Below, one piece after another: positions 5,385 to 50,930 of a DNA stretch of 64,000 nt. Position 1 is the stretch's first letter. Every line of letters starts with the position of its first letter. The DNA is from a virus (taxonomy: Duplodnaviria; Caudoviricetes). The stretch is from the IMG/VR virus record IMGVR_UViG_3300037461_001070, positions 6,721 through 70,720 of that record; one strand, written 5' to 3'. The notes beneath the pieces were generated by a model. That model saw nothing but the letters and a program-made list of their open reading frames with translations. It was not told where the DNA came from and ran no database searches. A program made the position numbers and the translations under genes.

Positions 5385-5956
5385 ACAATTATTTTAATTT
5401 TCAGATCCCATTATTCATGGAGAAATATGGCGAGGATTGGGATGATTTCCGAACCATCGTTGATGATAATGTAGATTATGTCATGAACAAAACATATCAA
5501 CTTTATTGGTTAAATAATGTTGATTACATGGGAGTCAGAGAAGTAGAGAAAGCTCTGCTTTCAATGAAAATAGGAACTTCATCCTCAGAAACATTGCCAT
5601 ATAAAAAAGAAAAGCTAAGAAAATTTCTGACAATATTTGCGAATAAAGGAACTGCTGATATTTATCTTGATTTTGCCGAATCAGTGGCAGGAGCAAGAGG
5701 CGATATTTATATGGGATATAATCTTGGGGTCTGGAGATGGGGAACATCTAGGTGGGGAATTCCTGGAGCTCCAACAGTGAATGATTTGAGATGGACATTA
5801 CAATATGCCAGATTTTATGTTCTTATCGACGTAAAAACCACGGATAGTTCTGAGCTTGATCAAATAACAAGTATTTTCCGAGAATCATATTTGTTGCCGG
5901 CATTTTATCAGATATATCTTATTGATTCCAGTTTCAATATATTAAGGACTATATAA
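5381..5956 (+). CDS. Baseplate wedge protein I-like
   Basis: Follows J; NKGTADIY motif; GTGA overlap. Confidence 0.6.
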   Translation: MNNYFNFQIPLFMEKYGEDWDDFRTIVDDNVDYVMNKTYQLYWLNNVDYMGVREVEKALLSMKIGTSSSETLPYKKEKLRKFLTIFANKGTADIYLDFAESVAGARGDIYMGYNLGVWRWGTSRWGIPGAPTVNDLRWTLQYARFYVLIDVKTTDSSELDQITSIFRESYLLPAFYQIYLIDSSFNILRTI

Positions 5957-10174: not shown

Positions 10175-10555
10175 ATGCACGAGTTCCAACAAATATCCCA
10201 AAAGATTGCGGAACTGGAGAAACAGGCTGTTATTGTTACTACTACCTTTGCTATTTTTAAGTGGCTTGGCAGTATTGTTTTTATTTATATCCTCGGAATT
10301 GGCATCTACGTATTCATATGGCTTAGCAGATTTAAAAAGCACAATAGAGAAAGAGCAGATATGTTTTTCGAAATTGCAGGAAAAGAAAGAGAGGATGCAG
10401 CTAATAGAATCGAAACCTTGGAAAGCTGTAACAATGAAATAATTGGACTTGTCAATGAACTATTTGGTAAAATATCTCATGAGAAAGAACTCAGAGAAAA
10501 AGATATTAAAGACTGTAAAGAAAGATGTGCTGCTATTTTATGCAATAGAGTTTAG
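10175..10555 (+). CDS. Single-TM membrane protein with coiled coil (holin-like)
   Basis: Hydrophobic WLGSIVFIYILGIGIYVFIWL; GGAGGAG SD. Confidence 0.45.
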   Translation: MHEFQQISQKIAELEKQAVIVTTTFAIFKWLGSIVFIYILGIGIYVFIWLSRFKKHNRERADMFFEIAGKEREDAANRIETLESCNNEIIGLVNELFGKISHEKELREKDIKDCKERCAAILCNRV

Positions 10556-10558
10556 ATA

Positions 10559-11536
10559 ATGGCTACTGGTAAAAACATAAGAATAAATAATTCGACTCCT
10601 ATCTTATCTCAAATTATTGCAGATCATACTGTTGTTGCCGATTACGATAAGATTCCGGCCTATTATATGGCTGAAGTTAAAAAGATGTGGTTGAATGTAC
10701 CAGGAGAAAGTCACTCCTATACATATCGTTATGGCCTAGAACTTCTTGAAGCCCTTGACGGTGATTACGCTGTCAATGCAATTGAATCAGGTGGACCTGA
10801 AGCATATACCGATGATTATCTGAGATCGAGCCGCACGATCTGGACAGGTAGTGCTTATGTTGATGGAGCAACAGGAGAAACTGTATGGTTCACATGGTAT
10901 GCTACTCCAGGACATGCCGGGGAATATAAAGACTATCTAAAAGCTCATATCCAAAAATGCCATGACGATGGTTATGAAATATCAGCACTTGGATTTGGGT
11001 GGTGTTGGGACATGTCTGCTGTTGATGAGTCTGATAGTGCTGACCCTGTATATGGATGCCATTGGTATGGAATGTCAGCAGGGGGTCCAGATGGGGACAA
11101 AGCCTGGGGACTTGATGACGATGATTATGGAGTAACAAGCAACAGAGTAAATATCGATACTTATCTTGGTGCAATGGAAGATTATATCGCATATTGCACT
11201 GCAAATAGCATTCCCACAAAAATGTTTTTTACTACAGGTCCGGTAGATACTTATACTGGAGAAGTTGGATATCAAGTTCATCTCAAACATGAACGCATAA
11301 GAGCGCACGTTCTCGATGATTCTTCCCGAATACTTTTTGATTATGCTGATATCCTATGCTATGATAATGATGGAACTCCGAATACGACGACATGGAGTGG
11401 ACACACATATCCAATAATTACAACTACTAATCTTGGAGATGCAGGAATAGGGCATATTGGAGAAGTTGGTGCAGTCAGAATCGCTAAAGCATTGTGGTGG
11501 ATGCTTGCAAGAATGGCTGGATGGGATGGTAACTAA
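10559..11536 (+). CDS. SGNH-hydrolase-like virion protein
   Basis: LFDYADI and GHIGEVGAVRIAKALWW resemble the SGNH C-terminal block. Confidence 0.45.
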   Translation: MATGKNIRINNSTPILSQIIADHTVVADYDKIPAYYMAEVKKMWLNVPGESHSYTYRYGLELLEALDGDYAVNAIESGGPEAYTDDYLRSSRTIWTGSAYVDGATGETVWFTWYATPGHAGEYKDYLKAHIQKCHDDGYEISALGFGWCWDMSAVDESDSADPVYGCHWYGMSAGGPDGDKAWGLDDDDYGVTSNRVNIDTYLGAMEDYIAYCTANSIPTKMFFTTGPVDTYTGEVGYQVHLKHERIRAHVLDDSSRILFDYADILCYDNDGTPNTTTWSGHTYPIITTTNLGDAGIGHIGEVGAVRIAKALWWMLARMAGWDGN

Positions 11537-14115: not shown

Positions 14116-14144
14116 TGTCTTTAATTTTTAAAAATCAGCATAAT
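14115..14144 (+). promoter_or_regulatory. Candidate sigma70-type promoter for the lysis cassette
   Basis: TTGTCT-18-CATAAT. Confidence 0.4.
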
Positions 14145-14161
14145 ATATATAGGAAATAGAA

Positions 14162-20077: not shown

Positions 20078-20285
20078 GCCTGGCTTGCTCCCACATGTCG
20101 AGAATTTTCTCTGAATCTTCTGGATATATACAGATCATTCTATTCAGAAGAAGAATGGTATGATATCTTTTTCTGAAAGTATCAGCCATACAATTCTTAT
20201 CAGAATAACAATCTTCCAAAGCATTTTTGAAATGTTCAAAATCTCCATCTTTCATGCTCTTGATTGTATTATGCGTTATCATCAA
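20025..20285 (-). CDS. Hypothetical protein
   Basis: 86 aa ORF in operon. Confidence 0.45.
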   Translation of the reverse strand: MMITHNTIKSMKDGDFEHFKNALEDCYSDKNCMADTFRKRYHTILLLNRMICIYPEDSEKILDMWEQARHENKRKTQENYKRERRY

Positions 20286-21667
20286 AATTCCTCTTTCTTT
20301 TTATATTTATTTCTCAAAAAAAGTGCGAGAGCAACTCCTACTGGAGAGATTATATCTACAAATACTGCTGGAAATAAGGACATAATAAATTGAATCCAAT
20401 CTCTTTGAGCCTTAAATATTCCGGCAAGCCATCCATAAAAGTCAGGAAGAGTTTCTGATCCTGTAGAAGATAATATAGTCCCGGATCTCTTGCTTTCTTT
20501 TATCTGCCGTTCTTCTTCACTTCTTATTTTATTGAGTTCGTCGGAAGTCTTCATTATTTCTTTATTTGCTTCAGAAAGCCTGTACTGTGTTTCGTTCCAG
20601 AGTTGAGTGTTATCTGTTCTGGATTTGATATCTCCCATACCTGAAAGTAATTGATTCAGAATTCCGGTCTGTTGCCGGTGTTCAGCCATACGCTTGATAA
20701 GATCTGCTTTACGTTCCTGAAGAATTGACCACGATGCTTTTCCGCTTTCAACTCCTGTTCTGGTTTGCTCTCTGATATTGGCAATATGTTTATTATATTG
20801 TCCGGCCACGGTTGACATGATAGAAAAGCAGGAGACAATAATCCAGAGCACAGCAAATCCTGAAGCAATAAATATCTTTGTCCATCTCGATTTCGCGACT
20901 TGTCCTGATAAGAAGAGAATGACAGTTTCGAAAGCGGAGACACTAAATCCAACCATAATGGAACTGAGAAGTAGGGCGAAGGCGACAGGTAAAAATTCAA
21001 CAAGCCAGACCGCAGTATAGTAGATGCTGATAATTGACGCACCAATTCCAATAACTCCCATACAGACTTGGATAACGTAGATTGGAACTCCATAGAGAGT
21101 GATATTTTCTCTGATACCATCATCTTTATCCTTTTTTATTTTCTTTCTTTTTTCTGGTTTTTCCAAGAAACTTTTGTTGTCTTTAATTTTCTGGCTTTCC
21201 CATTTCTTAAATAATGTTGTCGATTCTTTATACGAATCATTTATTTTTTTAAGAATAGATCTTCTGTTCTGGCGTTTAATTGTTATATCGGGAATCTTCA
21301 CTATTTCGTTTTCTTTTACTTCTGCAAAATTTGATTTGTCTATAATCTCGCCAGCAACAGAAACGACAAACCTCTTCTTTTCTTCTTCTACTGGAAATTC
21401 AAATTCTGGAATATGATCGATGACAGGTATATGATCTTCTCTTACTTCTTTGTTCGTGGTCATTATTTCCTCATGATTCTCCGGATATCTATACCAATCA
21501 CCTATTTTCTCGATATGTCCATTTTCCGCTAGAGCTGCCATACACTTTCTTGTATTTTCAGCGGAAAAATTAAGGACGTCGCACATTTCCTGGAGATTTG
21601 GAAATCTTTTTTTCTCTTTGAAGATAGAATATATGGCCCGTTTTACTTCATGCTGAATCGCTGCCAC
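20282..21667 (-). CDS. Membrane protein with N-terminal winged HTH, TM bundle and coiled coil
   Basis: FPNLQEMCDVLNFSAENTRKCMAALAENGHIEK; three TM segments mid-protein and one C-terminal. Confidence 0.55.
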   Translation of the reverse strand: MAAIQHEVKRAIYSIFKEKKRFPNLQEMCDVLNFSAENTRKCMAALAENGHIEKIGDWYRYPENHEEIMTTNKEVREDHIPVIDHIPEFEFPVEEEKKRFVVSVAGEIIDKSNFAEVKENEIVKIPDITIKRQNRRSILKKINDSYKESTTLFKKWESQKIKDNKSFLEKPEKRKKIKKDKDDGIRENITLYGVPIYVIQVCMGVIGIGASIISIYYTAVWLVEFLPVAFALLLSSIMVGFSVSAFETVILFLSGQVAKSRWTKIFIASGFAVLWIIVSCFSIMSTVAGQYNKHIANIREQTRTGVESGKASWSILQERKADLIKRMAEHRQQTGILNQLLSGMGDIKSRTDNTQLWNETQYRLSEANKEIMKTSDELNKIRSEEERQIKESKRSGTILSSTGSETLPDFYGWLAGIFKAQRDWIQFIMSLFPAVFVDIISPVGVALALFLRNKYKKKEEF

Positions 21668-36375: not shown

Positions 36376-36457
36376 TCTTATTTTATTTCTATTTTTGTGA
36401 GTCTTGTTTTTATTACAAACACCTTATTTATATAATGCTAGGCCCAAAAAATTATTT

Positions 36458-38159: not shown

Positions 38160-38539
38160 ATGTTCTGATCCTTGTATCTTTCTTGTCTAAAAATATTCGG
38201 AAGTTCTCCGAGAAGGAAATCTCGGTATGATATCCATCTCGTAATCTCTGACATGGTTGGATTTATTTTCCGAATTACAGTCGAGATCTGGCTGAACAGA
38301 AATTGAGTATATCCAGACCCATGGTCTAAAATACTTTTTGGGATAAGATCTTCTGGTCTTATTGCCGGAATAGATTCAAATTCTTTTAAGCAAGAATGAT
38401 ATATCATATGGATTGCTGACGGAAGAGCTACAAGATTTTTAATATTATTATTTTCTCTGTCGAAGTCAAGATGATGGACTTCGAATCCTTCAGGGATTTC
38501 TTCTCCAGTTTTCTCTTCGTAAAACTTTCTATAATCCAT
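38156..38539 (-). CDS. HNH endonuclease
   Basis: EVHHLDFDRENNNIKNLVALPSAIHMIYH. Confidence 0.85.
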   Translation of the reverse strand: MDYRKFYEEKTGEEIPEGFEVHHLDFDRENNNIKNLVALPSAIHMIYHSCLKEFESIPAIRPEDLIPKSILDHGSGYTQFLFSQISTVIRKINPTMSEITRWISYRDFLLGELPNIFRQERYKDQNI

Positions 38540-38541
38540 AA

Positions 38542-38793
38542 CTATTCCACTCCCGCTAATATTTCCTGGGCTTTCTTCTTTGTTTTTCTTATTTTCTTTT
38601 CTTCTTCGATTTCTTTGCGGCGTTCTGTGATGATTTTGTTAAGGCGGGTCTTGACTTCGATGATCAAATTCAACATATCCTGTTCGTATGTTGCTGGTGT
38701 GGTCTTGATTCTGATCCCGAACTTTGAATTTGAATAGGGTTGGAGTGTGGCGAGCTCTGAGTATTCGATTTCTAGGACATCAAGTTCTTTCAT
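38542..38793 (-). CDS. Hypothetical coiled-coil protein
   Basis: 83 aa; GGAG SD. Confidence 0.55.
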   Translation of the reverse strand: MKELDVLEIEYSELATLQPYSNSKFGIRIKTTPATYEQDMLNLIIEVKTRLNKIITERRKEIEEEKKIRKTKKKAQEILAGVE

Positions 38794-38808
38794 GTATGTC
38801 TCCTTTTA

Positions 38809-39507
38809 TTATAATGTTTGTATACTTCTTGTTTTTTTAATCAGGGATATATATTCAACCAATTCTTGTTTTGGAGAAAACCATTCGTTTTTTGTTCTGA
38901 AATTACTGAATCTTTCATGAAGATATTTTTCATTTTTTGGATGGGTTTTTATAGTGCAAAGAATTGTTAATTCTCCACCATGAGCCGATTCTATTTCTTT
39001 TTTGCGTCTTATTACATTATTAGAATAACCTATTTTTATAAGTCCTGTTATTGAAGACTGGAAGAAATATACTGATCCCCATCCATCGTTCTGCTTTTCA
39101 ATGTCATTTTTAAGAATACATTTATTGCACACATATGTTAAAGAAATATATTGTGAATTATTGGAGTGTATTTTTTTGCACTCTGGACATATATGTAGAT
39201 AATCTCTATGTCCTGGGGATTCTTTTATGTTCTCATATAATTTTATCAGAAAAAGATTTATTTCGAGAATATAATCGTCTTTATCTGAATCTATTATTTC
39301 CGATAATTTTATTTGGTTTATAAGTTTATTATCTTTGTATATTTCAACAATAACATATTTATTGTTTATCCCTGAATCAAAAACTGATAATTTTATGTCT
39401 ATTTTGCTTCTTTCTTTTGTTTCTAAATTAAATAATATTTCTTTTTTATTTTTATAAAAATAGAATGAAATATCTTGAAGGATGGAATGTAAATGTCTTA
39501 GATCCAT
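38809..39507 (-). CDS. GIY-YIG (T5orf172/MUG113-like) nuclease
   Basis: VYFFQS...IKIGYS...RKKEI...EKYLHERF...NEWF. Confidence 0.85.
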   Translation of the reverse strand: MDLRHLHSILQDISFYFYKNKKEILFNLETKERSKIDIKLSVFDSGINNKYVIVEIYKDNKLINQIKLSEIIDSDKDDYILEINLFLIKLYENIKESPGHRDYLHICPECKKIHSNNSQYISLTYVCNKCILKNDIEKQNDGWGSVYFFQSSITGLIKIGYSNNVIRRKKEIESAHGGELTILCTIKTHPKNEKYLHERFSNFRTKNEWFSPKQELVEYISLIKKTRSIQTL

Positions 39508-39520
39508 TTAAAAATAAAAA

Positions 39521-39597
39521 TGCCATTCAGAAGGGTAGTCCGGTTTTCGACTTTTTATTGTCTACAACCGAGGGATGACTGGCCCTTCTGGATGGCA
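39521..39597 (-). promoter_or_regulatory. Long leader hairpin upstream of the GIY-YIG gene
   Basis: TGCCATCCAGAAGGGCCAGTC pairs with GACTACCCTTCTGAATGGCA on the minus strand. Confidence 0.55.
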
Positions 39598-39650
39598 TCT
39601 CCATTACAAGGTTATTGGCTTTCCCTTAAACCAAAAGCTATTGTTAAGAT

Positions 39651-39680
39651 AGCATAATCATTTATATTATATCTTGTCAA
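39651..39680 (-). promoter_or_regulatory. Candidate sigma70-type promoter
   Basis: TTGACA-18-TATGCT on the minus strand. Confidence 0.45.
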
Positions 39681-39722
39681 TAAAAAAAAAAATAAAAATG
39701 CAGGAGATTTTACCTCCTGCAT
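39679..39722 (-). terminator. Rho-independent terminator ending the candidate ncRNA
   Basis: ATGCAGGAG/CTCCTGCAT stem followed by a long U tract on the minus strand. Confidence 0.8.
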
Positions 39723-40236
39723 ATTGTTATTCAGAAAGTTCGACTTATGTTGCGGATAGTAAGCCGTTTTTATACAGTCTTTACCGCTTTAGACCATTAA
39801 CTTCTGAATTTACAATGTGAGCCGTGAAGAATTGAATCCTCAGTCCGTTGATCAATCAGACCCGTTACAGGCGGCTCTACCAATCGGATTAGTCTGGTGA
39901 ACAATCATGCCTGCAAACATGACCCAAAAACGTTGCCAGCGCGTATCCTCTTGATTCTTAAATCCTGATCCGATGTGCTATCAATGGTATCGATCCATTC
40001 GAACCAGGGTTATGCAGCCCTGATCATCACCTGATATAGCGACCATGCTAATTCCGCAGCTCTCTTAAAGGTTCTATGCGCCTTAAAGATGGATCTCAAC
40101 AACATCACTTTATCCATGTCGATCTAAAGGGGTTAACAAAAGATCTGGGGGTCATGGAATTCCTGGCTACTGGCATGTGGTTCAGGAATATAATATTGTA
40201 AAGATCCATCTTTAACACGCATATTTTATCTGCCTT
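39700..40236 (-). ncRNA. Candidate large structured non-coding RNA (about 540 nt)
   Basis: No ORF of 60 aa or more; about 42% GC by hand count versus AT-rich flanks; own promoter and terminator; multiple helices. Confidence 0.7.
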
Positions 40237-40242
40237 ATCTAT

Positions 40243-40271
40243 ATTATGCCAAAATAAAAATATTAGATCAA
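40243..40271 (-). promoter_or_regulatory. Promoter of the candidate ncRNA
   Basis: TTGATC-17-CATAAT with extended -10 TG. Confidence 0.6.
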
Positions 40272-40456
40272 GATTTTTTTTCTTTTTTATTATTTTTTAA
40301 TTCTTTTATCCCCTTATATTTCTCGCCGCATTTGAAACAGACGTGATTATTCGGTATTTCTCCGAAGAACTGGATATCACATCCACACCTACATGTTATT
40401 ATTTTGTGGGAACTCATATTTTCTGACCTCGATATCATGATTTTTTGCATATCCAA
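40268..40456 (-). CDS. Small zinc-ribbon protein
   Basis: CRCG...CFKCG; real start probably downstream. Confidence 0.5.
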   Translation of the reverse strand: MDMQKIMISRSENMSSHKIITCRCGCDIQFFGEIPNNHVCFKCGEKYKGIKELKNNKKEKKS

Positions 40457-40643
40457 TTATTTCGTCACAATCTTTTCTAGCGAAATATGTTCCACAACAT
40501 AAAAGAATTCCGTTGATACAACCCAGGATAGAATTTATTCCCGACACATAAATAGTATCTTTTATGTTTGAGACATCTTTAAAAATTTCATATTGCCTGG
40601 CGTTTCCACACAAGACAAAAATATTTCCTCTGTTTTCAAGCAC
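40389..40643 (-). CDS. Hypothetical protein
   Basis: 84 aa ORF. Confidence 0.5.
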   Translation of the reverse strand: MLENRGNIFVLCGNARQYEIFKDVSNIKDTIYVSGINSILGCINGILLCCGTYFARKDCDEIIGYAKNHDIEVRKYEFPQNNNM

Positions 40644-40870
40644 TACATGGTATCCTTATATAATTTTAAAGCCGTTAATATTGATAACGCCACTACTTGT
40701 CTGGATCTGATTTTCCCCATCTCTTCAAGCTGTGTCAAGAACATAATACACATACCTTTTCTTCCTGGATTTATTTCGGTATAATCCCATTCTTCTGTGT
40801 AATCAGTAAAGGTTTTGACCAGATCTATGCTTTCATCTGATCTGAAAAAGAAGTTTTTAATCGGTTTCAT
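40643..40870 (-). CDS. Hypothetical protein
   Basis: 75 aa ORF, coupled. Confidence 0.5.
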   Translation of the reverse strand: MKPIKNFFFRSDESIDLVKTFTDYTEEWDYTEINPGRKGMCIMFLTQLEEMGKIRSRQVVALSILTALKLYKDTM

Positions 40871-41730
40871 CCTAGCACCTCTTTCATTATTGCATGAGCC
40901 TCTTCCTGGGGAAGAACTCCTGGATCTCCTTCTTTTAACAAGATCATGTCAACTTCAAGTCCTACTCCAGCAAGCTCATTCCCTAGCTCATCAGCTCTTT
41001 TCCTGGCTTCTTCTCCAGCATCATATAATAATGTTATTTTCTTGAATCGTTTTGAAAGCAATAAAACCTGTTTCTTTGTCCAGCCCACACCAAAAGTTGC
41101 GGCACTACCTCGGCCCATACGCCAAACATCGGTGCAGCCCTCGACGATAACAGCGTGATCACCACGACAGCGATCTATATTATAAAGTATGTGTTTGTGA
41201 TGTATTACCTCGTCTTTTCTTTCGCAAGCCCTGTAACGAAGTGGAGACACTCCTGTCCAGTCCCGGCCCAGATACGACACTAACTCGAATTCATAATAAA
41301 TTGGCAGAATTATTCGATGAGAAAAATTTCCGATATTTCCAGTGGCAAGAACTCCATATTCTTGTTCGATATAGTCTGGATCAAATCCTCTTTTTCTGAT
41401 ATAATCTTTGTGCTTATCCTGTAATGGACCGCATCCGAGTGGGAATTTTATTTTGTCTGCAACCTCAATCTTCTCTTCTCTATTTTTATATTCATCAGAT
41501 TCATATAAGGTCTTGACCTGATCCCAGGATTCATTGATTATCAATCGTATGGCTTCCTCTATGTTGTGTCCTCCACATTTCCAGCACGAAAAGAATCCAT
41601 TAAAATGAAAACCTCCATGCTTTCCATCATCATCACAGAATGGACACATGATATTTACGAATCCCCTGGAATTTTGTGGGGAAAAATCTATGTAGAAATC
41701 AGTGAATAATCTTTCGAAATCAAATACCAT
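40867..41730 (-). CDS. DNA primase (Zn finger + TOPRIM)
   Basis: CPFC...CWKC, RIILPI, IVEGCTD, LLYDAG, GDPG. Confidence 0.9.
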   Translation of the reverse strand: MVFDFERLFTDFYIDFSPQNSRGFVNIMCPFCDDDGKHGGFHFNGFFSCWKCGGHNIEEAIRLIINESWDQVKTLYESDEYKNREEKIEVADKIKFPLGCGPLQDKHKDYIRKRGFDPDYIEQEYGVLATGNIGNFSHRIILPIYYEFELVSYLGRDWTGVSPLRYRACERKDEVIHHKHILYNIDRCRGDHAVIVEGCTDVWRMGRGSAATFGVGWTKKQVLLLSKRFKKITLLYDAGEEARKRADELGNELAGVGLEVDMILLKEGDPGVLPQEEAHAIMKEVLG

Positions 41731-41911
41731 GTATCATAACCCACGATTTTTTTAGGAATTCTATGCCATCCTCAAAAGTATTGGAATTAAGAAATCCATG
41801 AATATAATAAGGACTTAATCCGGTCTCTTCTCGCATTCTATTTATCCGGCCCTCATTCTTTGAATCATAATATTTTTTAAGAAGTGGAATTGTTATAAGT
41901 TTTGTCGTCAA
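41720..41911 (-). CDS. Hypothetical HTH-like protein
   Basis: INRMREETGLSPYYIHGFL. Confidence 0.4.
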   Translation of the reverse strand: MTTKLITIPLLKKYYDSKNEGRINRMREETGLSPYYIHGFLNSNTFEDGIEFLKKSWVMIHGI

Positions 41912-41916
41912 TTTAT

Positions 41917-42078
41917 TTTGTCCGTAAATTTATTTTTCCAGATCTTCCAATATTTTTTGTACCACTCTTTTTCTGTTATCCCCAAGAATTTGCTCATGCT
42001 TGATGGAGTCAACTCTCCGTAGTGTTCGAGAAATGCTTTTATTCCTGATCTCGTACTTTCTGGTAAGTCCTTGCCCAT
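41917..42078 (-). CDS. Small hypothetical protein (53 aa, MGKDLPES...)
   Basis: Hand-translated; GAGG SD. Confidence 0.35.
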
Positions 42079-42102
42079 ACAATATCCTCGCTATAAGTAA
42101 TA

Positions 42103-42288
42103 TTACCATGCTCTTCTCTTTGGTGTTCTTTCGTTATTTCTATCAGAAAAATTTTGCTCTATCTGTTTGTTAAGTATTTTAGAACATAATTTACAACTTA
42201 CCTTGTCCTTATCATCGGTAAGCTCTATTCCTAGAAAAGATATACTACATATGGATCTATGACCCTCTCGCCGGTAATGAACTGACAT
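42103..42288 (-). CDS. Small zinc-binding hypothetical protein
   Basis: H...C...VSCKLC. Confidence 0.5.
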   Translation of the reverse strand: MSVHYRREGHRSICSISFLGIELTDDKDKVSCKLCSKILNKQIEQNFSDRNNERTPKRRAW

Positions 42289-42461
42289 TATTTTCCTTTC
42301 CTTGTTTCTATTTCATCAAAAATTCTTCTCTTCAAATACTCAAATCCTTTCTCTATCTTTAAAACCTTGCCGATATGGATATCGAGATAATGGCAGTCAA
42401 AACATAGACCTGTTTTATTGAATCCAGTTAATTTCTTCCCACATATTTTACAGATTTTCAT
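42288..42461 (-). CDS. Small zinc-ribbon protein (57 aa)
   Basis: Hand-translated MKICKICGKKLTGFNKTGLCFDCH; ATGA/TAATG coupling. Confidence 0.65.
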   Translation of the reverse strand: MKICKICGKKLTGFNKTGLCFDCHYLDIHIGKVLKIEKGFEYLKRRIFDEIETRKGK

Positions 42462-44065
42462 TTTATTCTCTTCGATTTATATTCGTTTATAAGATATGTC
42501 AATAAACTTTTGTTCTCGGTGTCAGCTCCATCCATGACAGCATCAAGAGTTTTTCTTTTGTTGTCTAATAATGTAGCAATATCCTCTTCTATCGTATTCA
42601 GTCCAACCAAATAATATGCCATTGTCGGAACTTTTTTATTTACGTCGATGACACGATCCTCGGCTTGGTCATGATTACCAGGAACCCAATCCATTTCTAT
42701 GAAAGCCGTGTTTTCTGCTGCTGATAATTGTATTGCTGATCCCGCAGCTTTTATATTGCCTATGAATAATGTTATTTCTTTTTTGTTTTGGAATGAATCT
42801 ATTGCGTTTTGTTTCTTGGCCGGACTGTCGCCACCATAAAGAGTAACGCATCTCCCAGAAAATTTTTCGGCCAAAGCATCAACAACATTCCTGTGTATAC
42901 AGAACACAACAAGCTTTTCTGATTCAATAAATGATTCGATCCATTCCACGATCTGATCGAATTTGCCTTTTACTGCAAGTTGTTTTAACTTTTCAAATCT
43001 CACTACTGTCTCCGCCCATGCTGCTCTTCGTGCCGCCGCATCTCCGTCATTGTCTCGAATATACTGTATTATATCTTTTTCTGCTTCATCATATTCTTTT
43101 CTGTTGTTTAACTCCATGGGTATAATAGATCTTTCTTTATCAGGAAGATCAGAATACACTTCTTTTCTTAATCTTCTTATCATGAACGATTTTTTTAAGA
43201 CTTCATTAAGACGCTTGGTATTACTAGATCCTTTTCCAGAAGGATCTCTTGCCGCATCACAGTATTCGTTTAAAAATCTTTGATGACTATTGAACATCTG
43301 GCCATCAATTAAATTCAGAATATTCCAAAATTCAGAGGGTCTGCTCAGGATAGGTGTTCCCGATATCCCTATTACATGTTCTATATTCTTACCTATGTAT
43401 TTAACAGCTCTTGTTCTCATTGCTTTCTTGGATTTGATGAGGTGGCATTCGTCTAATATTAAAAGCTTGGGTTCAAATTCAAGAATCAAATCAATATATG
43501 TTGAGAGTATATCATAATTTATTATCAATATATTGTCTTTTTCAGATAAGGCATGGGAATGGCCCTGCACTATAACATGTTTTTCATGGGTAAGCCACTT
43601 CGAGCATTCCCTTGACCATCCTATTTTGTATGAGGCTGGAGGAACTATTATAGCCGGTCTTAGTTCGGGATGAAGAATCATGTATGATAGGGCTTGGATC
43701 GTTTTTCCTAGTCTCATCTCGTCGGCAAGCAAAGCCCTGCCGTTTAACTCTTCAAGTCTTTTCACGCCCTCGACCTGGAATGGCCTTAACGCTAACCCTA
43801 CAGGTAAATCGATTTTGAGAGGTCTGGAATTATTCTTGCCTGTCCAATTCTCTAATTCGCTATTTTTAGAAAATCCTAGCTCAGTGATTTTATCCAGACC
43901 ATATCTGTTTAATGGTATTGACCACTTCCCTGTCTCTCCATGATACTGTCGGCCCGGAATCGTATTTATTTCGGATATGAGTGATCCTTGTCTGCTCCGT
44001 GGAACTCTGACAGACAAATATATTCGGTCATCATTCAATACCGCATTTTTTATTTCAGATCGCAT
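42458..44065 (-). CDS. SNF2-family helicase/annealing helicase with HARP-like N-terminus
   Basis: LADEMRLGKT, DECH, SGTP, RRL, QAEDRV. Confidence 0.9.
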   Translation of the reverse strand: MRSEIKNAVLNDDRIYLSVRVPRSRQGSLISEINTIPGRQYHGETGKWSIPLNRYGLDKITELGFSKNSELENWTGKNNSRPLKIDLPVGLALRPFQVEGVKRLEELNGRALLADEMRLGKTIQALSYMILHPELRPAIIVPPASYKIGWSRECSKWLTHEKHVIVQGHSHALSEKDNILIINYDILSTYIDLILEFEPKLLILDECHLIKSKKAMRTRAVKYIGKNIEHVIGISGTPILSRPSEFWNILNLIDGQMFNSHQRFLNEYCDAARDPSGKGSSNTKRLNEVLKKSFMIRRLRKEVYSDLPDKERSIIPMELNNRKEYDEAEKDIIQYIRDNDGDAAARRAAWAETVVRFEKLKQLAVKGKFDQIVEWIESFIESEKLVVFCIHRNVVDALAEKFSGRCVTLYGGDSPAKKQNAIDSFQNKKEITLFIGNIKAAGSAIQLSAAENTAFIEMDWVPGNHDQAEDRVIDVNKKVPTMAYYLVGLNTIEEDIATLLDNKRKTLDAVMDGADTENKSLLTYLINEYKSKRIK

Positions 44066-44127
44066 TATAAACCCCTTTATCTATATTATGCAATTTCTAC
44101 ATAATTTCAATAAATTTTTCCAATAAA

Positions 44128-44151
44128 AAAGCCTACTTTTCAGTAGGCTTT
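44128..44151 (-). terminator. Terminator of the early operon
   Basis: AAAGCCTACT/AGTAGGCTTT stem with U tract on the minus strand. Confidence 0.75.
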
Positions 44152-44154
44152 GTC

Positions 44155-44361
44155 TTATCTTATTTTTGTTTCAGCGATTATCAGGTCAAGACAGCTCATG
44201 CAAATCCTCCAGTACCCGTATCCGCCTTTAGGAAGAGAGAAACATACTTCTTCCTTGACTATCTTTTTCCTGCATACCGAACACTCTCTTTTTGCTTTTG
44301 CTCTGTCAACAAGTCTTTTCGCTATCTCTTCCGGAAGCAGTGTGCCATAATATTTTCCCAT
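44155..44361 (-). CDS. Small zinc-finger protein (PARP-type-like CSVC...CMSC)
   Basis: Start moved to ATG 44361 behind the AAAGGGGTT SD. Confidence 0.6.
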   Translation of the reverse strand: MGKYYGTLLPEEIAKRLVDRAKAKRECSVCRKKIVKEEVCFSLPKGGYGYWRICMSCLDLIIAETKIR

Positions 44362-44431
44362 GATTGTAACCCCTTTATTTAATTTTAATTTGCTCATAAT
44401 GGCCCTTTTATAAAAGGGCCATATCAACAAA

Positions 44432-44962
44432 CTAATTCATGACAAGAATACTCTGCACTTCTTTGAATGCCGTCATTATCTTTTTCCTTTTCCAGCCTTG
44501 ACCGGACAGGTATGATCTGATCAATGTCTTATGCACTTTTTTTGACCATACTGTTTTGTCTTTTCTTTTTATCAGCTTCATCATATCCGGGGGAGGATTC
44601 AGGGCAAGATCAACACATATTTTTGCGTCTCTACCCAAACTATCAAGTGTTGCTCTTGCTATCGTGGTCTCGACATAATCATCGGGAACAGGATATTCCG
44701 GCATTTCCTCGAAATCAATTTCTTTGCTTTTAATCTCTCTCTGTTCCCGGACGTACCTGTACAGGTTAAAATAAAGTGAAGCACTCAGGTATGTACTGAA
44801 TTTCGCTCCATTTGATTTTTCCTGTCTCCAGTGATGACAGCACTCAACAAAAATCTGATTTCCTTCACTTTTCAGATCATCGTAATCCATTCCGGTAAGC
44901 CTAGATAAATTACGGGCGAAGGATTTTATCAGATTTTTATTCTCTTCATATAATTTTTCCAT
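44432..44962 (-). CDS. Phage sigma-factor-like protein (sigma70 region 2)
   Basis: YEENKNLIKSFA...DDLKSEG...KFSTYL. Confidence 0.7.
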   Translation of the reverse strand: MEKLYEENKNLIKSFARNLSRLTGMDYDDLKSEGNQIFVECCHHWRQEKSNGAKFSTYLSASLYFNLYRYVREQREIKSKEIDFEEMPEYPVPDDYVETTIARATLDSLGRDAKICVDLALNPPPDMMKLIKRKDKTVWSKKVHKTLIRSYLSGQGWKRKKIMTAFKEVQSILVMN

Positions 44963-45025
44963 GATACACCCCTTTTATTTAATTTTAAGACTTGCGGATC
45001 GGGCCTATGGCCCTCACCGTAAAGC

Positions 45026-45115
45026 TTAAAATGCGAGCATAGCAATTTTAAATATTGCTATCCATAGAAGTATTGACATGAATACTACCAGAAAAATATA
45101 TTTCATTCTTATCAT
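45026..45115 (-). CDS. 29-aa hydrophobic single-TM micropeptide
   Basis: Hand-translated MIRMKYIFLVVFMSILLWIAIFKIAMLAF; GGAG SD; ATGA overlap. Confidence 0.5.
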   Translation of the reverse strand: MIRMKYIFLVVFMSILLWIAIFKIAMLAF

Positions 45116-45558
45116 GATAAATCTCCTATGTTTTTGATAGTAAAATCGCCATACTCCATGCCATCATATGTAACACAGTCTTGTTTAAACACTAATTCAT
45201 TGTCAACATCACTCATGTCATATCTATAACCGAATCCTTGAATAAATTCAAATCTTACTGTTGACATGTATGTGAAGTGTACCCATTTGAGCGGTCCAAT
45301 CATTGGCCCATTCACTCCCCAATCCTGACCCTTTATTCTGTCGTCACCATTTTTGAATCCATGAATGAGGCAGATATACAGGCCCGGATCAATTTCTTGC
45401 TCTGGTGTTTCGTTCGTGATAGGAATACTTTTTATTTTTTCTTCCTCGTCTTCAATCGCTGTTCTCATACATTCCCGGCATCGTCCATTCTTAACCGTGA
45501 AATTATCGAATCCAGAACAATCAGAACAGAAACCCTTATTACTTTTTATTGTGATCAT
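45112..45558 (-). CDS. Early hypothetical protein with N-terminal Cys cluster
   Basis: CSDC...CREC; leader element upstream. Confidence 0.6.
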   Translation of the reverse strand: MITIKSNKGFCSDCSGFDNFTVKNGRCRECMRTAIEDEEEKIKSIPITNETPEQEIDPGLYICLIHGFKNGDDRIKGQDWGVNGPMIGPLKWVHFTYMSTVRFEFIQGFGYRYDMSDVDNELVFKQDCVTYDGMEYGDFTIKNIGDLS

Positions 45559-45643
45559 GATCTTAACCCCTTTTTAGATTTAAACCTTGACAAAATAGGT
45601 TTATGTCTGTACTGCATATGTGCAGTACAGTATAATCCTGCTT

Positions 45644-46081
45644 TTATAAACAACCATCTTCTTTAAAACTATAATAACCTTCCTCGGTTATTATGATGTG
45701 ATCAAGTACAGGAATTCCTAAAATGTTTCCTGCATCCCTGACACGGTTTGTTGTGATAGTATCCTCATGAGACGGTACTAATTCACCACTAGGATGATTA
45801 TGAGCGATAATCACAGACACAGCCAGCACTTCAATAGCTCCTGAAAATATTTCACGAGGATGTACTATTGCTTCTGATATAGTGCCAACACTGACTTCTT
45901 TCCATGCTATCATCTTGTTTTTATTGTTTAGATAAATAGCATAAAAATGTTCCTGTACTGCTGTACCAACTTTTGGCATAAGAAAATCATAGACTTTCTT
46001 GGGACTGTCTATGTATGCCATATCTTTAGGCATACTATCCTTTGACTTATAACGCAATTCAATTTCCTTAACTACTATCAT
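45644..46081 (-). CDS. radC: RadC-like JAB/MPN domain protein
   Basis: EHF, VHPREIF, AHNHPSG...PSHED, LDHIII. Confidence 0.9.
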   Translation of the reverse strand: MIVVKEIELRYKSKDSMPKDMAYIDSPKKVYDFLMPKVGTAVQEHFYAIYLNNKNKMIAWKEVSVGTISEAIVHPREIFSGAIEVLAVSVIIAHNHPSGELVPSHEDTITTNRVRDAGNILGIPVLDHIIITEEGYYSFKEDGCL

Positions 46082-46162
46082 GATTTTAACCCCTTTTTAA
46101 TTATAATTTTTTCGTGTCTCTGCACTATCAATATAATGCAGAGTACCAAAAAACTATCTGTC

Positions 46163-46756
46163 TTAACCCATATAACTTTTTCTGTCTTGATCATCAGTGT
46201 AATTTTCCCGGTCTTGTCCGGCGGTCTCTTCTTTTTGTTCTGACAGGTCGGTATACTTCCATACATCAAAGGAATTGCCTGACGCTACTTTCTCGAATTT
46301 TCCACCGATATACTCGGCAATTCTAGGATAGCATGAAGTACCGACTCCGCCCTCGTAATAGACGTGTTTGTACTTTCTATTTTCATTGTGATAGTTGCCA
46401 ATACCATAAGGGTGTCCGGTAAGATCGCCTTTTTCATGAAGCTTGTATTTAAGAAAAGCGTTAAACACTCCGGCAATAACCGTACTTTCCTTGTCATAAC
46501 CACAACCACTACATGTAAATCCTTCGACTCTTACATACATCTGTGCTTGCCCATCTTTAAAACGAACGTCAGCCACCGCATGAGGATTTGATCCCCATGT
46601 GCGCGATCTCTTCCATTCAATTGAAATTATTATTGAATCTACTTTCAATTGATTGACTTCGCTTTCATAGAGCAACCGCTCTTTCTCTTCTTTCCGGGCT
46701 TGCTTCCTTGATTCGGCTCGGCTTAGTTTTTCTTCTGTTGTCATTCTTTTTGTCAT
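46163..46756 (-). CDS. Early hypothetical protein (GCGYDKES motif)
   Basis: 197 aa; leader element upstream. Confidence 0.6.
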   Translation of the reverse strand: MTKRMTTEEKLSRAESRKQARKEEKERLLYESEVNQLKVDSIIISIEWKRSRTWGSNPHAVADVRFKDGQAQMYVRVEGFTCSGCGYDKESTVIAGVFNAFLKYKLHEKGDLTGHPYGIGNYHNENRKYKHVYYEGGVGTSCYPRIAEYIGGKFEKVASGNSFDVWKYTDLSEQKEETAGQDRENYTDDQDRKSYMG

Positions 46757-46837
46757 GATTGTAACCCCTTTTTAGATTTTAAAACCGTAATGGTTTTATG
46801 TCTGTTCTGAAAATAATTTCAGAACAGTACAAAGTCA

Positions 46838-47530
46838 TTACATACTTTTCAAGAGCTCATCAAAGTAGTGGCGAAAATAATATCTTAAATCCTGTCTTGC
46901 CATTCTAATATTTTTCCCCTGTTTTATATGTTCGAAAATAAATTCAGGGTTTTTGTATCCTCTTAATTTTATCGCATTGAATAGAAGCGATGGCACAAAA
47001 TAATTTTCTTCGAAATGAGAAAATATATGAGGCGTACTAAAATTATCTTGAGGAAACATAGAACAATACCAGCAATCACCACCACCGGGATATTCGAGGC
47101 CATACAATCTTATCGAATCACAAAATCCTTTTATATATTTTGTGATAAGTTTTTCCAGCTTTTTTCTGGTCTCTACTATCCTTTTCTCTTCTTGTTCAGG
47201 TCTAGGATTAAGCACTACCTCTGATTTGATCTTGATTCCGTCAAATAATTCCTGTCTTCCTTTTTTGAGGCTGACATAGGGAACATTCTTTTCCGTAAAT
47301 ACTCGGAATGGGCAGAATCTATTGAATCTGTCTCTAGTAGTCAGGGTATTCCATCCCCCGGTATCAAGTACATAAGAATTATCAGCACTTATTTTTATGA
47401 TATCGGTTTCATGGAGACGGATGATCGCTATTTCATTTTCAACACGCAAATACGTGTTGTTAGCGATTTTCTTGCCCCTGCTTTTATCCTTAGCCTTTTT
47501 TGACAGCTCTATAGCGGTATCGTATAACAT
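46838..47530 (-). CDS. Early hypothetical protein (LDTGGWNTLTT motif)
   Basis: 230 aa; leader element upstream. Confidence 0.65.
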   Translation of the reverse strand: MLYDTAIELSKKAKDKSRGKKIANNTYLRVENEIAIIRLHETDIIKISADNSYVLDTGGWNTLTTRDRFNRFCPFRVFTEKNVPYVSLKKGRQELFDGIKIKSEVVLNPRPEQEEKRIVETRKKLEKLITKYIKGFCDSIRLYGLEYPGGGDCWYCSMFPQDNFSTPHIFSHFEENYFVPSLLFNAIKLRGYKNPEFIFEHIKQGKNIRMARQDLRYYFRHYFDELLKSM

Positions 47531-47607
47531 GATAGTAACCCCTTTTTAAGATTTAACGGTTAAACCGTTATAATGGCCCTGCACTATGGCAGGGGTCATA
47601 TAAGGAT

Positions 47608-47862
47608 TTAATTGTTATTCATGATTGTCTCGTACTGACTTAAAATATAGTCAACGTGCTCTTCATAACAGGAAAATGCAGAGGGCTGTTTTATTTTTCC
47701 ACTATAAACTTCATTCCAAAAAATATCTAGTCTTTCTATTTCTTTCAAAAAATTCTCTGCATCATCACCTTGCATGAATACTTCTGCATTATCCGTCAAT
47801 CTTGTTATGGTTATTCCATAACTTAGATTTTCATAACAGAATCTATTTTTATATTGTATCAT
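47608..47862 (-). CDS. Early hypothetical protein
   Basis: 84 aa; leader element upstream. Confidence 0.65.
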   Translation of the reverse strand: MIQYKNRFCYENLSYGITITRLTDNAEVFMQGDDAENFLKEIERLDIFWNEVYSGKIKQPSAFSCYEEHVDYILSQYETIMNNN

Positions 47863-47940
47863 AATAAAACCCCTTTTTAAGATTTAAACCTTTAAATAGG
47901 TTTATATGAGTGCAGGTATATATACCTGCACTCTATAACA

Positions 47941-48579
47941 CTACTTTTTGATCGGACACGGTTCCCGGTACATGAGAGGCGTTTTTGATTTTATTTGAGC
48001 CTTTAATTTTTTAAGGTGTTTGCTAATATCTTTTTTGATCTGTGACTCGGCAATACTCACGCCCTCTTCGAGACAGTAATTTTCATCACCGTAAAATCCA
48101 TAACACGAATCAATGACGCTACCTGTACTGTCTTCTACTACATAGGCATAGACTTGTCCGGTAAGGTATTGATCATAAGTCTCTACTTCATTTTTCAGAA
48201 ATTGTCTGACCTTTTCCTTTAATCGTGCCGATACTTTCTTGACACCGTATTCTTTCCTGACTTCATCAAGACTAACATAGATGATCCCGACCTGACCAGA
48301 ATCCCATGGACACGAAAATCCTGACGTGTTCATGGTAATGCCGCTATGGTCATAAAGAAATAACGGTAGCACTACATATTTATCATTATCAGCTATTTCC
48401 TTGACCTCATCTATGGTTAGATCATGCTTGTCTCCGAGACTGTACCGGCTATGGAAGCATACCATATGACCGAAATTATCCCATTCCGTTCTAGGGTTTA
48501 CCGGATCAAAGTCTTGTATGACTTTGACGTGATACGGTCCGACCTGCTTTTCTAAATAAACATATTCCTCTTGTCTCAT
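47941..48579 (-). CDS. Early hypothetical protein (YDHSG...WDSGQVG motif)
   Basis: 212 aa; leader element upstream. Confidence 0.65.
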   Translation of the reverse strand: MRQEEYVYLEKQVGPYHVKVIQDFDPVNPRTEWDNFGHMVCFHSRYSLGDKHDLTIDEVKEIADNDKYVVLPLFLYDHSGITMNTSGFSCPWDSGQVGIIYVSLDEVRKEYGVKKVSARLKEKVRQFLKNEVETYDQYLTGQVYAYVVEDSTGSVIDSCYGFYGDENYCLEEGVSIAESQIKKDISKHLKKLKAQIKSKTPLMYREPCPIKK

Positions 48580-48668
48580 GATTAAACCCCTTTTTAATTA
48601 TTTAAGTCTGCATTCAATTAGACTTATGTGAGTGCTGGAATAATTCCAGCACTATACAAGTCTACTTT

Positions 48669-48872
48669 TCAATGTGTCGGCACTAATTTAATATTTACTT
48701 TATCAATTAGACCTGCATTTTTCGCCCATCTTTTGGCAAGATTTTTATCCTGCCAATTTGACAGAATATGATCTTCTTTTTCTCGGCATATCTCCGATAT
48801 TGCCACTAAAACATTATAAAGATCATATTTGTCAATAAGACTCTCAATATAATCTTTTTCTTTCTGTGTCAT
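48669..48872 (-). CDS. Early hypothetical protein
   Basis: 67 aa; leader element upstream. Confidence 0.6.
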   Translation of the reverse strand: MTQKEKDYIESLIDKYDLYNVLVAISEICREKEDHILSNWQDKNLAKRWAKNAGLIDKVNIKLVPTH

Positions 48873-48980
48873 ATTAAAACCCCTTTTTAATTAAGATATA
48901 AAAGGCACTAAAACCTTTTAAAAAGGTACTGGAATAATATTAACACTATTCCAGTATAAATTTTAACGGGTTTTAAAATG

Positions 48981-49127
48981 CTATGACGCTTTGACTCTGA
49001 TAATAAATCTTTTGGTGCTGACCCTGCCCGTACTCAAGTTTTTAGTGGTCACAGTTTTAACGTGTACAATATGACCGGCACTATTTAATACTTGCTTCCA
49101 GCCAGTGCTGATTATAACTGTATTCAT
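48981..49127 (-). CDS. Early small basic protein (48 aa, MNTVIISTGWKQ...)
   Basis: Hand-translated; AAAAAGGGGTT SD upstream. Confidence 0.6.
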   Translation of the reverse strand: MNTVIISTGWKQVLNSAGHIVHVKTVTTKNLSTGRVSTKRFIIRVKAS

Positions 49128-49203
49128 GATTAAACCCCTTTTTAAATTTAAAGACTTGAGGAGATACCGCTATTATGATCTTGTTATAATAGCGGTTATG
49201 ACC

Positions 49204-49392
49204 TTAAATGTTTAAATCCCTGACAATGGTTCCAGCACAATAAAACGATTGACCGTCGCTATATATGGTTCTAATTCCTTCTCTTTCTTTTACTCTTTCT
49301 ATGACGGTCTTATTGTCTAAGCACTGTCTTAATCTCTTTTTTCTGGTCTCATATTTTTTCAATGTGAGGCCACTACTATGATATTGTATCAT
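49204..49392 (-). CDS. Early hypothetical protein
   Basis: 62 aa; leader element upstream. Confidence 0.6.
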   Translation of the reverse strand: MIQYHSSGLTLKKYETRKKRLRQCLDNKTVIERVKEREGIRTIYSDGQSFYCAGTIVRDLNI

Positions 49393-49457
49393 GATTAAAC
49401 CCCTTTTTAAAATTTGCTTGTATCTGCCTATTAAAAATAATAGGCAGTATAAACAAA

Positions 49458-49739
49458 CTAATTAAGACTGACAAGTTCATATTCACCGGATTTGATTTTC
49501 TTTCTGGTGATGTCAATATTTTCAGAAAGAAATAAATTTCTATATCTCCCGGTTGTGACCGAATAATTCCAGAACCTATTATCAAGATAGGTACGGTCAG
49601 GTGTCATTATTGCTATTATTGATTGATAACTTTGCAAGACCACACCATATTCAAAAATCAGAATAAATTGATTTTTTGACTGGAATTGTTCGACTCTTTC
49701 AAAAGTCCCGAGCTTTTCAAAAATTTCTTGTTTATTCAT
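49458..49739 (-). CDS. Early hypothetical protein (NQF...QSY...YSVTT motif)
   Basis: 93 aa; AAAAAGGGGTT SD. Confidence 0.65.
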   Translation of the reverse strand: MNKQEIFEKLGTFERVEQFQSKNQFILIFEYGVVLQSYQSIIAIMTPDRTYLDNRFWNYSVTTGRYRNLFLSENIDITRKKIKSGEYELVSLN

Positions 49740-50004
49740 ATTAAAACCCCTTTTTATTAAATTTTAAATCTCAAGGATAAGAAAGAATTAAATCAGGGAT
49801 ACAAACCATTAAGGCCACCTTTTATAGTGTAGTTTTTACAGTATTTAATAAAATTCTTTCCGCACCTTCAGACATAAAAAGGGGGGTTTTATCATTATTA
49901 TTTTTTTAATATTGTATTGTACTTAATACACATATTAAAACGTTTTAAAAGAGCGGTTAAGACTTTGCCTGAACGATTCCCACGATATCTTGACAGGCTT
50001 TTAA

Positions 50005-50160
50005 TTATGCTGTTCTTATCTTTCTTACTGCTTTACGGGTTGTGTAAATCTTTCCAGATTTGTCTTTAATCCAGATTGTTTTTACAAACATTTCCTGACC
50101 CTTGAGGTCATAGCATTTAATCCAGTTCGTTTCTTTTATGATGTTGCTTTTGTTTATCAT
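50005..50160 (-). CDS. First gene of the early operon (51 aa, basic)
   Basis: Hand-translated MINKSNIIKETNWIKCYDLKG; AAGAGG SD just after the promoter. Confidence 0.6.
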   Translation of the reverse strand: MINKSNIIKETNWIKCYDLKGQEMFVKTIWIKDKSGKIYTTRKAVRKIRTA

Positions 50161-50192
50161 TTTAAAACCTCTTATCTTTTCTTTATATAAAC

Positions 50193-50221
50193 AATATAAT
50201 AAAGATAATAAAGAATGTCAA
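50193..50221 (-). promoter_or_regulatory. Strong early sigma70-type promoter
   Basis: TTGACA-17-TATATT with an AT-rich upstream tract. Confidence 0.8.
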
Positions 50222-50930
50222 GTAAATAAAGAAAAAAAAGATAATAAATGAGAAAAAAAAATTAAAATAAATTGTGTAAGAATACAGAATAAAAGCAGGT
50301 AAATATATTATTTATTTAATTGTATGGATATATGTGATTGTTATATTAAATAAATAATGTTATATATATTAAGTGAAAATAAATGGAATAAGGGGGGAGG
50401 GAGGGAGCCATTATAATTCTATTTAAGTATAAAATAAAATAGTTTAATTGTATTCTTTTTATAAATCTATAGTCTTATGTGACATATTGTATCTTATCGG
50501 AAGCTAATAAACATGTATTTAATGCGAATATTACTGGAAATATCAAAAACCATGTTATATGGAGAATAGACTTCGTACACCCCTCTCTCAATTCCCTACA
50601 ATTTTTTCTAGGGTTCAATTTTTATATTACCACAAAATCATATAATATATTGTGTAAGAATTTAATTGGAATATATTATGGGCTCTGCCTTTCTTTTTAT
50701 TCCTTATCAGACCTTCACAGAGCTTCTACAGCGAATTCTCTGGCTTTAACCGGCCCTAGCCATCCCATCTCATATAAAATGCGGTACAGACGTTCCTATG
50801 CAGTGTCAGGACCAGAAAAAGGTAGTTCCAAAAAATATTCTGTAAAAAATTTTAAGGGTATCCCCATATTTAGTATTTTATTTTATACTTAAATAGAAAA
50901 AATAAAAATAATTTCTGGGGAACAGCATAA
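50222..50930. other. AT-rich divergent non-coding region, candidate genome end / packaging region
   Basis: Strand switch; very AT-rich; no convincing ORF. Confidence 0.4.

Follow-up and report, generated by a model that had tools for sequence, protein, structure and literature searches.

Phage antisense RNAs which pair at or near translation-start regions include the C4 RNA of P1 and P7, OOP of lambda and sar of P22; C4 RNA, which is released from a precursor by processing, uses sequences in its loops to act in trans. Among bacterial regulators, RNAIII of Staphylococcus aureus is about 514 nucleotides (nt) long and also contains an open reading frame (ORF) of 26 amino acids (aa). RNAIII and RsaE expose unpaired C-rich (UCCC) hairpin loops which pair with the G-rich Shine-Dalgarno sequences (SDs) of several mRNAs and block initiation; cleavage by RNase III follows pairing of RNAIII, and Rsa RNAs have a hairpin at their 5' end as well as a Rho-independent terminator (PMC2790875, PMC2837412). 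In phage T4, early mRNAs are shut off as a class via their SD or start region by the endoribonuclease RegB and the translational repressor RegA (PMC1702504, PMC3014915); RegB inactivates early mRNAs via a GGAG SD (PMC1702504). Here, we analyzed a locus in a stretch of 64,000 nt, hereafter called the window, which corresponds to positions 6721-70720 of the 70,720-nt IMG/VR record IMGVR_UViG_3300037461_001070, a phage genome with direct terminal repeats. A predicted RNA of about 540 nt, encoded on the minus strand, would display a loop complementary to the SDs of the phage's own early genes.

The predicted RNA resembles RNAIII and RsaE in its C-rich hairpin loop with complementarity to SDs. It differs from them in being phage-encoded, in lacking sequence or Rfam similarity, and in its proposed targets, the phage's own early genes, with a longer exact match of 9-11 nt and a near-identical start region in a dozen genes. 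RegB and RegA are proteins, whereas the proposed recognizer here is an RNA loop and the recognized SD is the non-canonical AAAGGGGUU. C4, OOP and sar are much shorter (about 70-80 nt) and have one target operon, whereas the start region considered here is shared by about 13 genes; no Rfam match links the RNA to them. Similarities in size range, phage or Firmicute-like context and organization as a promoter-to-terminator unit also exist with GOLLD, ROOL, OLE, raiA, 6S RNA, Y RNA/YrlA and transfer-messenger RNA (tmRNA); however, no covariance model matched, the rod described below contains a three-way junction, and a Ro/TROVE partner is missing from the genome.

Predicted transcription unit and proposed anti-Shine-Dalgarno loop

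On its minus strand, the locus constitutes a delimited unit which is free of ORFs and runs from a promoter to a terminator. The promoter (40243-40271) reads TTGATC-17 nt-TGgCATAAT; it is of the extended -10 type, with TG before the -10 hexamer, and an A-rich tract lies 5' of it. The intrinsic terminator (39688-39722) consists of an 11-bp stem with five GC pairs (39722-39698) and the tail GCAUUUUUAUUUUU, the U-run UUUUUAUUUUU standing directly 3' of the stem. A transcript starting about 7 nt past the -10 region and ending at this terminator would comprise about 540 nt (39698-40236). No minus-strand ORF in 39723-40267 exceeds 37 aa in three genetic codes, and reading TGA as tryptophan or TAG as glutamine opened no reading frame there. 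The GC content of the stretch is 42.0% as compared to a window mean of 35.8%, which places it at the 93rd percentile. A sequence-only reading of this DNA had proposed a promoter TTGATC-17-CATAAT, an ORF-free region of about 42% GC and a strong terminator, and all three were found as described; the gene-free stretch of about 540 bases probably is a real non-coding RNA.

The 5' part of the RNA forms a rod (40075-40223, minus strand) with a 32-bp closing stem, which is interrupted by two 1x1 mismatches and capped by two hairpins, H1 (40159-40189) and H2 (40113-40158). Both single-stranded C-rich elements of the rod are located in H2. The first one lies in the apical loop UUUGUUAACCCCUUU (40126-40140), a loop of 15 nt closed by GAUCU/AGAUC and the largest hairpin loop of the structure; its portion AACCCCUUU (40134-40126) is exactly complementary to the SD core AAAGGGGUU of the early genes. 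The loop is accessible: its unpaired probabilities are 0.73-1.0, and opening it costs 0.3 kcal/mol. The second element, ACCCCCA (40146-40152, minus strand), lies in an internal loop of H2. As a side observation, the SD region UCUGGGGGU of a 461-aa gene (20282-21667) contains a 9-nt complement of this second C-run (ACCCCCAGA, RNA nt 85-93), which taken alone is at chance level.

When short words of the RNA were searched in the remainder of the genome, 11-nt antisense matches to two early-operon leaders were obtained, and no long antisense match beyond the SD motif was found in the genome. The DNA form of the SD core, AAAGGGGTT, occurs 13 times in the window as compared to 0.76 expected copies. 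Twelve of these copies (44070-49753) are on the minus strand and serve as SDs of the early region, each located 4-7 nt before an ATG, that of the SNF2 helicase gene included; all except one of the twelve are embedded in the nearly invariant start region AAAAAGGGGTT(N3-6)ATG. The sole copy on the opposite strand in the entire 70.7-kb genome is located at 40126-40134, within the RNA, and only three of 1000 dinucleotide shuffles of the RNA contained the complement. A near copy of the core, AAAAGGGGTG, precedes the ATG at 44962 and constitutes a thirteenth early start region; another near copy, AAAGGGGAA, is found at gene 3492-3881. Most other genes with a recognizable site have SDs of the GGAG type, and the loop would therefore discriminate between them and the early genes. 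When the complement of the RNA was compared with the early leaders, similarity did not reach beyond about 15 nt on and near the SD, which argues that the loop match is not a copied cassette. Hairpins upstream of the early genes differ from gene to gene.

Exact complementarity to the early start regions extends over 9-11 nt for twelve of them and over 8 nt for the near copy at 44962. Interaction energies, calculated as the sum of hybrid energy and opening energies, ranged from -5.6 to -13.9 kcal/mol for the 13 early start regions (mean -9.4 kcal/mol); 46 other genes reached a mean of -1.8 and a best value of -8.0 kcal/mol. Upon scanning the whole RNA by raw hybridization, the loop was the best site for 12 of the 13 early start regions. 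After inclusion of the opening costs it was clearly best for 12 of 13 and about tied for the start region at 44962, where the competing segment contained the second C-run. RNAduplex with the complete 539-nt RNA gave no discrimination, and RNAcofold returned zero, pairing of a loop with a linear sequence being outside its model.

The block GCATAATATAGATAA (40235-40249, minus strand; 15 nt) spans the -10 region and the first transcribed bases of the RNA and is identical to a block before the SNF2 helicase gene (44077-44091); these are its only two exact copies in the window. The likeness to SNF2 extends to an ATGCG start. Thus, the RNA gene carries a copy of the promoter and leader of the SNF2 operon. 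Weaker copies of the block are found at 36424-36438 and 14138-14152. Judged from these sequences, the SNF2 operon and the RNA, perhaps together with the 469-aa gene, may share a single promoter class. Furthermore, scanning of the spans 38500-41500 and 41400-50400 revealed no terminator-like minus-strand site between 44128 and 39722; the transcript of the SNF2-primase operon may therefore also have its 3' end in this stretch.

The ATGCG start belongs to an ORF of 29 aa (MRVKDGS...; 40133-40222, minus strand), which has the same start context as SNF2 and a UAA stop codon within the anti-SD loop.

Fold of the RNA and search for known families

The sequence-only reading had drawn five domains by hand, namely the rod, two cloverleaves, a multi-helix domain closed by AUCGGAU/AUCCGAU and a three-way junction with kissing loops. 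Folding of each domain alone and comparison with 200 shuffles showed that the rod is real (z -8.93; none of the 200 shuffles was as stable). Cloverleaf A (z -0.47; 59 of 200 shuffles as stable) and the multi-helix domain (z -0.11; 88 of 200) behaved like shuffled sequence; cloverleaf B (z -2.37; 4 of 200) and the three-way junction (z -2.84; 2 of 200) were marginal. These four domains occupy the 3' two-thirds of the RNA (39723-40074, minus strand), which are non-coding and marginally structured, the 352 nt 3' of the rod having z values of -2.1 (minus strand) and -1.9 (plus strand). The whole RNA (547 nt) folded at -175.7 kcal/mol with a z value of -6.75; its plus-strand counterpart reached -4.87. 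The global minimum free energy structure of the RNA contained long-range pairings unlike the hand-drawn modules. The locus shows, even if the anti-SD reading should be wrong, that a convincing set of hand-folded cloverleaves and a multi-domain architecture can score like shuffled sequence.

The rod is strand-specific. It reached a z value of -6.88 when folded as the plus strand as compared to -8.93 on the minus strand, and its stem contains on the minus strand five U.G and no A.C pairs; the plus strand would read A.C at these positions. If the arm differences were neutral transitions, such an asymmetry would occur in about 1 of 32 cases. That all five wobbles are U.G on the minus strand fits selection on a minus-strand RNA rather than on a DNA palindrome. 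A sliding fold scan with 200-nt segments placed the rod among the top segments, in which it was not unique; hairpins of the early operons scored alike.

The window was searched by cmscan with all 4227 families of Rfam 15 at the gathering score, and the region 39300-40600 additionally at a relaxed threshold of E<=10. No family matched in the window at the gathering score, and only weak matches at chance level were obtained around the locus at E<=10; the claim that the RNA matches no known large phage RNA was thus borne out. GOLLD, ROOL, OLE, raiA and HEARO gave no match at the gathering score in the window, and no match to a group I intron (RF00028) was obtained in the entire genome at E<=10, the flanking ORFs ending and starting independently. 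As regards an undescribed structured RNA, one very stable structure specific for the RNA strand is retained, together with the absence of Rfam matches; the ornate five-domain picture resembling GOLLD or ROOL had to be given up, with no covariance-model match and two of the five domains folding like shuffled sequence.

The tRNA model RF00005 (gathering score 29 bits) had no match at E<=10 in the 70.7-kb genome, whereas all 14 control genomes matched. ARAGORN predicted no gene at the default and 80% thresholds; at thresholds of 60-70% or in mitochondrial mode it reported junk on both strands, at 70% including two overlapping low-quality tmRNA candidates, one per strand. A precursor cut into tRNA-like pieces, as suggested by the sequence-only reading, finds no support in these searches or in the z value of cloverleaf A, cloverleaf B being marginal. 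A tmRNA was rejected: default ARAGORN and Rfam gave none, and the third acceptor pair reads G:C and not G3:U70. Furthermore, no TROVE (Ro/Rsr) domain is encoded in the genome at E<=1 and no Rfam match to Y RNA/YrlA was obtained. For 6S RNA, too, a match to Rfam was absent, and the interior of the rod consists of two hairpins at a three-way junction and not of a bubble. The tRNA-, tmRNA-, Y-RNA-, 6S- and GOLLD/ROOL-like readings hence fail on the negative Rfam, ARAGORN and TROVE searches. An RNA associated with a retron or reverse transcriptase was also discarded, as no RVT_1 match was found in the genome at E<=1. Affiliation to RNAs with C-rich anti-SD loops is defined by function and not by homology; here the predicted loop is C-rich and unpaired, and its SD complementarity appears to exceed chance.

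Homologues were sought as the sequence-only reading had proposed, and none was found in any collection searched. Comparison of the region by blastn with 50,697 GenBank phages gave no match, and nothing similar was detected by nhmmer, blastn and tblastx in primase-anchored loci from IMG/VR (8 loci) and from metagenomes of the Joint Genome Institute (29 loci), with primase identities of up to 41%. Exact 20-22-mers of the RNA had no match in IMG/VR, and use of the T5orf172 protein as a search anchor yielded no homologue of the RNA. The pattern of the early start region gave 23 single matches in IMG/VR, which corresponds to chance level. Primases with 44-55% identity (P0002-P0008) are present in a large protein database.

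Proposed function and competing explanations

The explanation that we favor, tentatively, is a trans-acting anti-SD regulatory RNA whose C-rich loop would pair with the SD regions of the early gene class. Transcription of the RNA gene would depend on a sigma-70-type promoter of its own, which copies that of the SNF2 operon; the 5' rod would be the working part of the RNA, with the 32-bp stem supporting the hairpin that displays AACCCCUUU in a 15-nt loop. Pairing of this loop with the start regions of early mRNAs would comprise 9-11 contiguous Watson-Crick pairs, extendable to 14-15, and would block ribosome binding; perhaps it would also create a substrate for RNase III. The predicted outcome would be a class-specific shut-off or damping of early genes. 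A stem of 32 bp is long enough for RNase III. The long stem is therefore a likely RNase III substrate, which makes a shorter active species plausible, and an anti-SD RNA of about 90 nt might be released from the 540-nt precursor; the 3' 350 nt might have a role of their own.

In a bolder form, which we consider somewhat doubtful, the early genes would bear a private, nearly invariant start (AAAAAGGGGUU, 3-6 nt, AUG), and a dedicated RNA with the exact anti-sequence in its loop would switch off this temporal class of about 13 genes in one step as a counterpart of RegB/RegA, the active piece maybe being cut by RNase III from a 540-nt precursor that is also the tail of the replication operon. Should the anti-SD reading hold, a whole temporal gene class would be under a compact, sequence-programmable post-transcriptional control, with an address label in the ribosome-binding site and one RNA as its reader. 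An RNA-based mechanism would be added to a problem known so far mainly via proteins such as RegB and RegA of T4, and a simple orthogonal translation switch would become available for engineering.

Several points weigh against a regulatory role of this kind. It is deduced from a single genome and by computation, and with no homologue in any collection searched neither conservation nor covariation can be invoked, although this absence reflects the sparse sampling of the phage lineage more than it argues against function. The complementarity was noticed after the fact, so that the p value of about 0.003 from the shuffles is optimistic. A function restricted to the hairpin leaves a 540-nt transcript and its barely structured 3' 350 nt unexplained. 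Furthermore, the RNA shares its promoter type with SNF2, which itself carries the targeted SD, so that the timing logic of an early shut-off is hypothetical. Finally, none of three related records (G001-G003; primase identity 32-41%) combines a private SD with an antisense copy.

Among these records, G001 (30,167 nt, 39% complete; the record behind locus L009) contains GAAAGGAT in 19 copies on the gene strand and in none on the other. This sequence is usually followed by aGGAAAATG, and most of ten copies viewed are located in a uniform start region before an ATG; judged from its sequence, G001 is another phage with a stereotyped translation-start sequence. G002 and G003 have no private start region. 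The comparison of relatives neither supports nor refutes the anti-SD model.

The main rival, which we consider unlikely, regards the locus as non-functional or weakly functional filler. The SNF2-primase operon would then end in a long untranslated 3' tail, situated in a region that is variable and rich in endonucleases and assembled from a duplicated promoter and leader and an inverted repeat; the anti-SD match would have arisen by chance or be the relic of an inverted copy of an early start region. The 5' end visibly copies the SNF2 promoter, leader and ATGCG start, the segment from the primase to the 469-aa gene is variable among relatives and here contains T5orf172 and HNH genes, the 3' 352 nt are marginally above shuffles on both strands, and the collections searched hold no homologue. 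However, phage genomes seldom retain filler of 545 nt that is equipped with a strong terminator and an extended -10 promoter, the five wobbles of the rod all fall on one strand, the similarity to the leaders stops at about 15 nt, and the anti-SD match is exact, genome-unique and located in an open loop. A structured RNA with another role, either a scaffold of several domains or a precursor from which tRNA-like decoys against anticodon nucleases are cut, appears improbable. It would account for the z value of -6.75 of the whole molecule, for cloverleaf B and the three-way junction being marginally above shuffles and, by eye, for the T-loop-like string GGUUCGAAU and the ACAU ends of both hand-drawn cloverleaves; it conflicts with the random-like behavior of cloverleaf A and the multi-helix domain, with the tRNA covariance model being empty genome-wide at E<=10 and ARAGORN at its default, and with the lack of both an Rfam family at the gathering score and a TROVE gene.

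Little probability is likewise left for an mRNA encoding one or more very small proteins, for instance the 29-aa ORF at 40222-40133, with the rod as a translational control element. The start context of this ORF (AAGG, 10 nt, ATGCG) copies the SNF2 start and its end falls exactly in the loop, but its SD is weak and badly spaced, the frame is buried in the 32-bp stem, and an equivalent plus-strand ORF exists, as any palindrome allows; the peptide has no recognizable features, and tblastx against the loci of relatives found no protein-level similarity. As the least probable explanation, the locus would act at the DNA level, its inverted repeat of 31-34 bp being a Correia-like miniature transposon with TA on either side, a site bound by protein or, next to the replication genes, a portion of a replication origin. 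The repeat of 31 nt with a spacer of 87 nt has TA at both ends, the site lies between the primase and initiator genes, and the equivalent gap in the relative L003 is AT-rich and contains iteron-like repeats. Here, however, the region is GC-richer than the genome and not AT-rich, and the differences between the arms are all U.G on one strand. Moreover, a pattern of the repeat arm with 20 specified bases had no match in the 185,579 species genomes of GTDB or in IMG/VR and occurs as a single copy in the phage, on which grounds a Correia-like miniature inverted-repeat transposable element was rejected.

Source phage, neighboring features and related loci

The phage is uncultivated and originates from a wetland. 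Its genome has a GC content of 36% and encodes, among others, a DnaE-type polymerase, an SNF2 helicase and a DnaG-like primase; identity of DnaE to that of the nearest cultured phage is no higher than about 35%. The stretch or part of it was found in four wetland metagenome DNA runs, two of which contain all sampled words; no RNA run was listed among the sequencing runs containing the stretch, and contigs from the four wetland runs revealed no variant letters. The RNA locus has the primase gene on one side and the initiator gene on the other. From the primase to the conserved 469-aa gene, the segment varies in content and length among relatives; here, it comprises three small ORFs, the large RNA, a second small structured unit, the T5orf172 gene, an ORF of 83 aa, an HNH gene and a gene of 485 aa.

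The second unit is located just downstream (39515-39680, minus strand). From its promoter, TTGACA-18-TATGCT (39680-39651), an RNA of about 125 nt would arise, which contains a hairpin of about 25 bp (z -5.2); its terminator at 39510-39523 and that of the large RNA share the tail GCAUUUUUAUUUUU. Immediately after this unit, at 39507, begins the T5orf172 ORF, which lacks an SD; the unit may be a leader or attenuator of T5orf172 or a separate small RNA. A complementarity of 70% over 27 nt between the large RNA and its small neighbor was judged to be due to chance. GATC occurs 371 times in the whole window, i.e. 5.8 times per kb as compared to a rough estimate of about 3 per kb from base composition, and this excess may reflect Dam-type methylation biology of host or phage. 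An enrichment of GATC in the RNA (8 sites in 514 nt) was rejected because the genome is GATC-rich and other segments contain up to 10.

ORF-free gaps near the primase were also present in the related loci L003, L008, L014 and L038; they are AT-rich, repeat-rich or unstructured, and none resembles the RNA. The gap of L003 downstream of the primase (5919-6720, identical to 8919-9720 of L016) comprises 802 nt with a GC content of 22% and contains three direct iteron-like AACAATAAGCT repeats, a long hairpin and two elements of about 60 nt (GGGCAAAGGGGAACC...TTTGCCC); possibly, this gap represents an origin that carries small structured repeats. In L038, an ORF-free gap of 900 nt (10434-11333) separates the primase from the homologue of the 469-aa gene. 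It contains palindromes rich in GC (GCGCGCGC...) as well as a duplication of about 70 nt, and its fold has a z value of -9.3. Additionally, L016 contains at 6729-6950 a tandem array of 15-nt units (GGGGCCAATCTT...), which might be located within a coding repeat.

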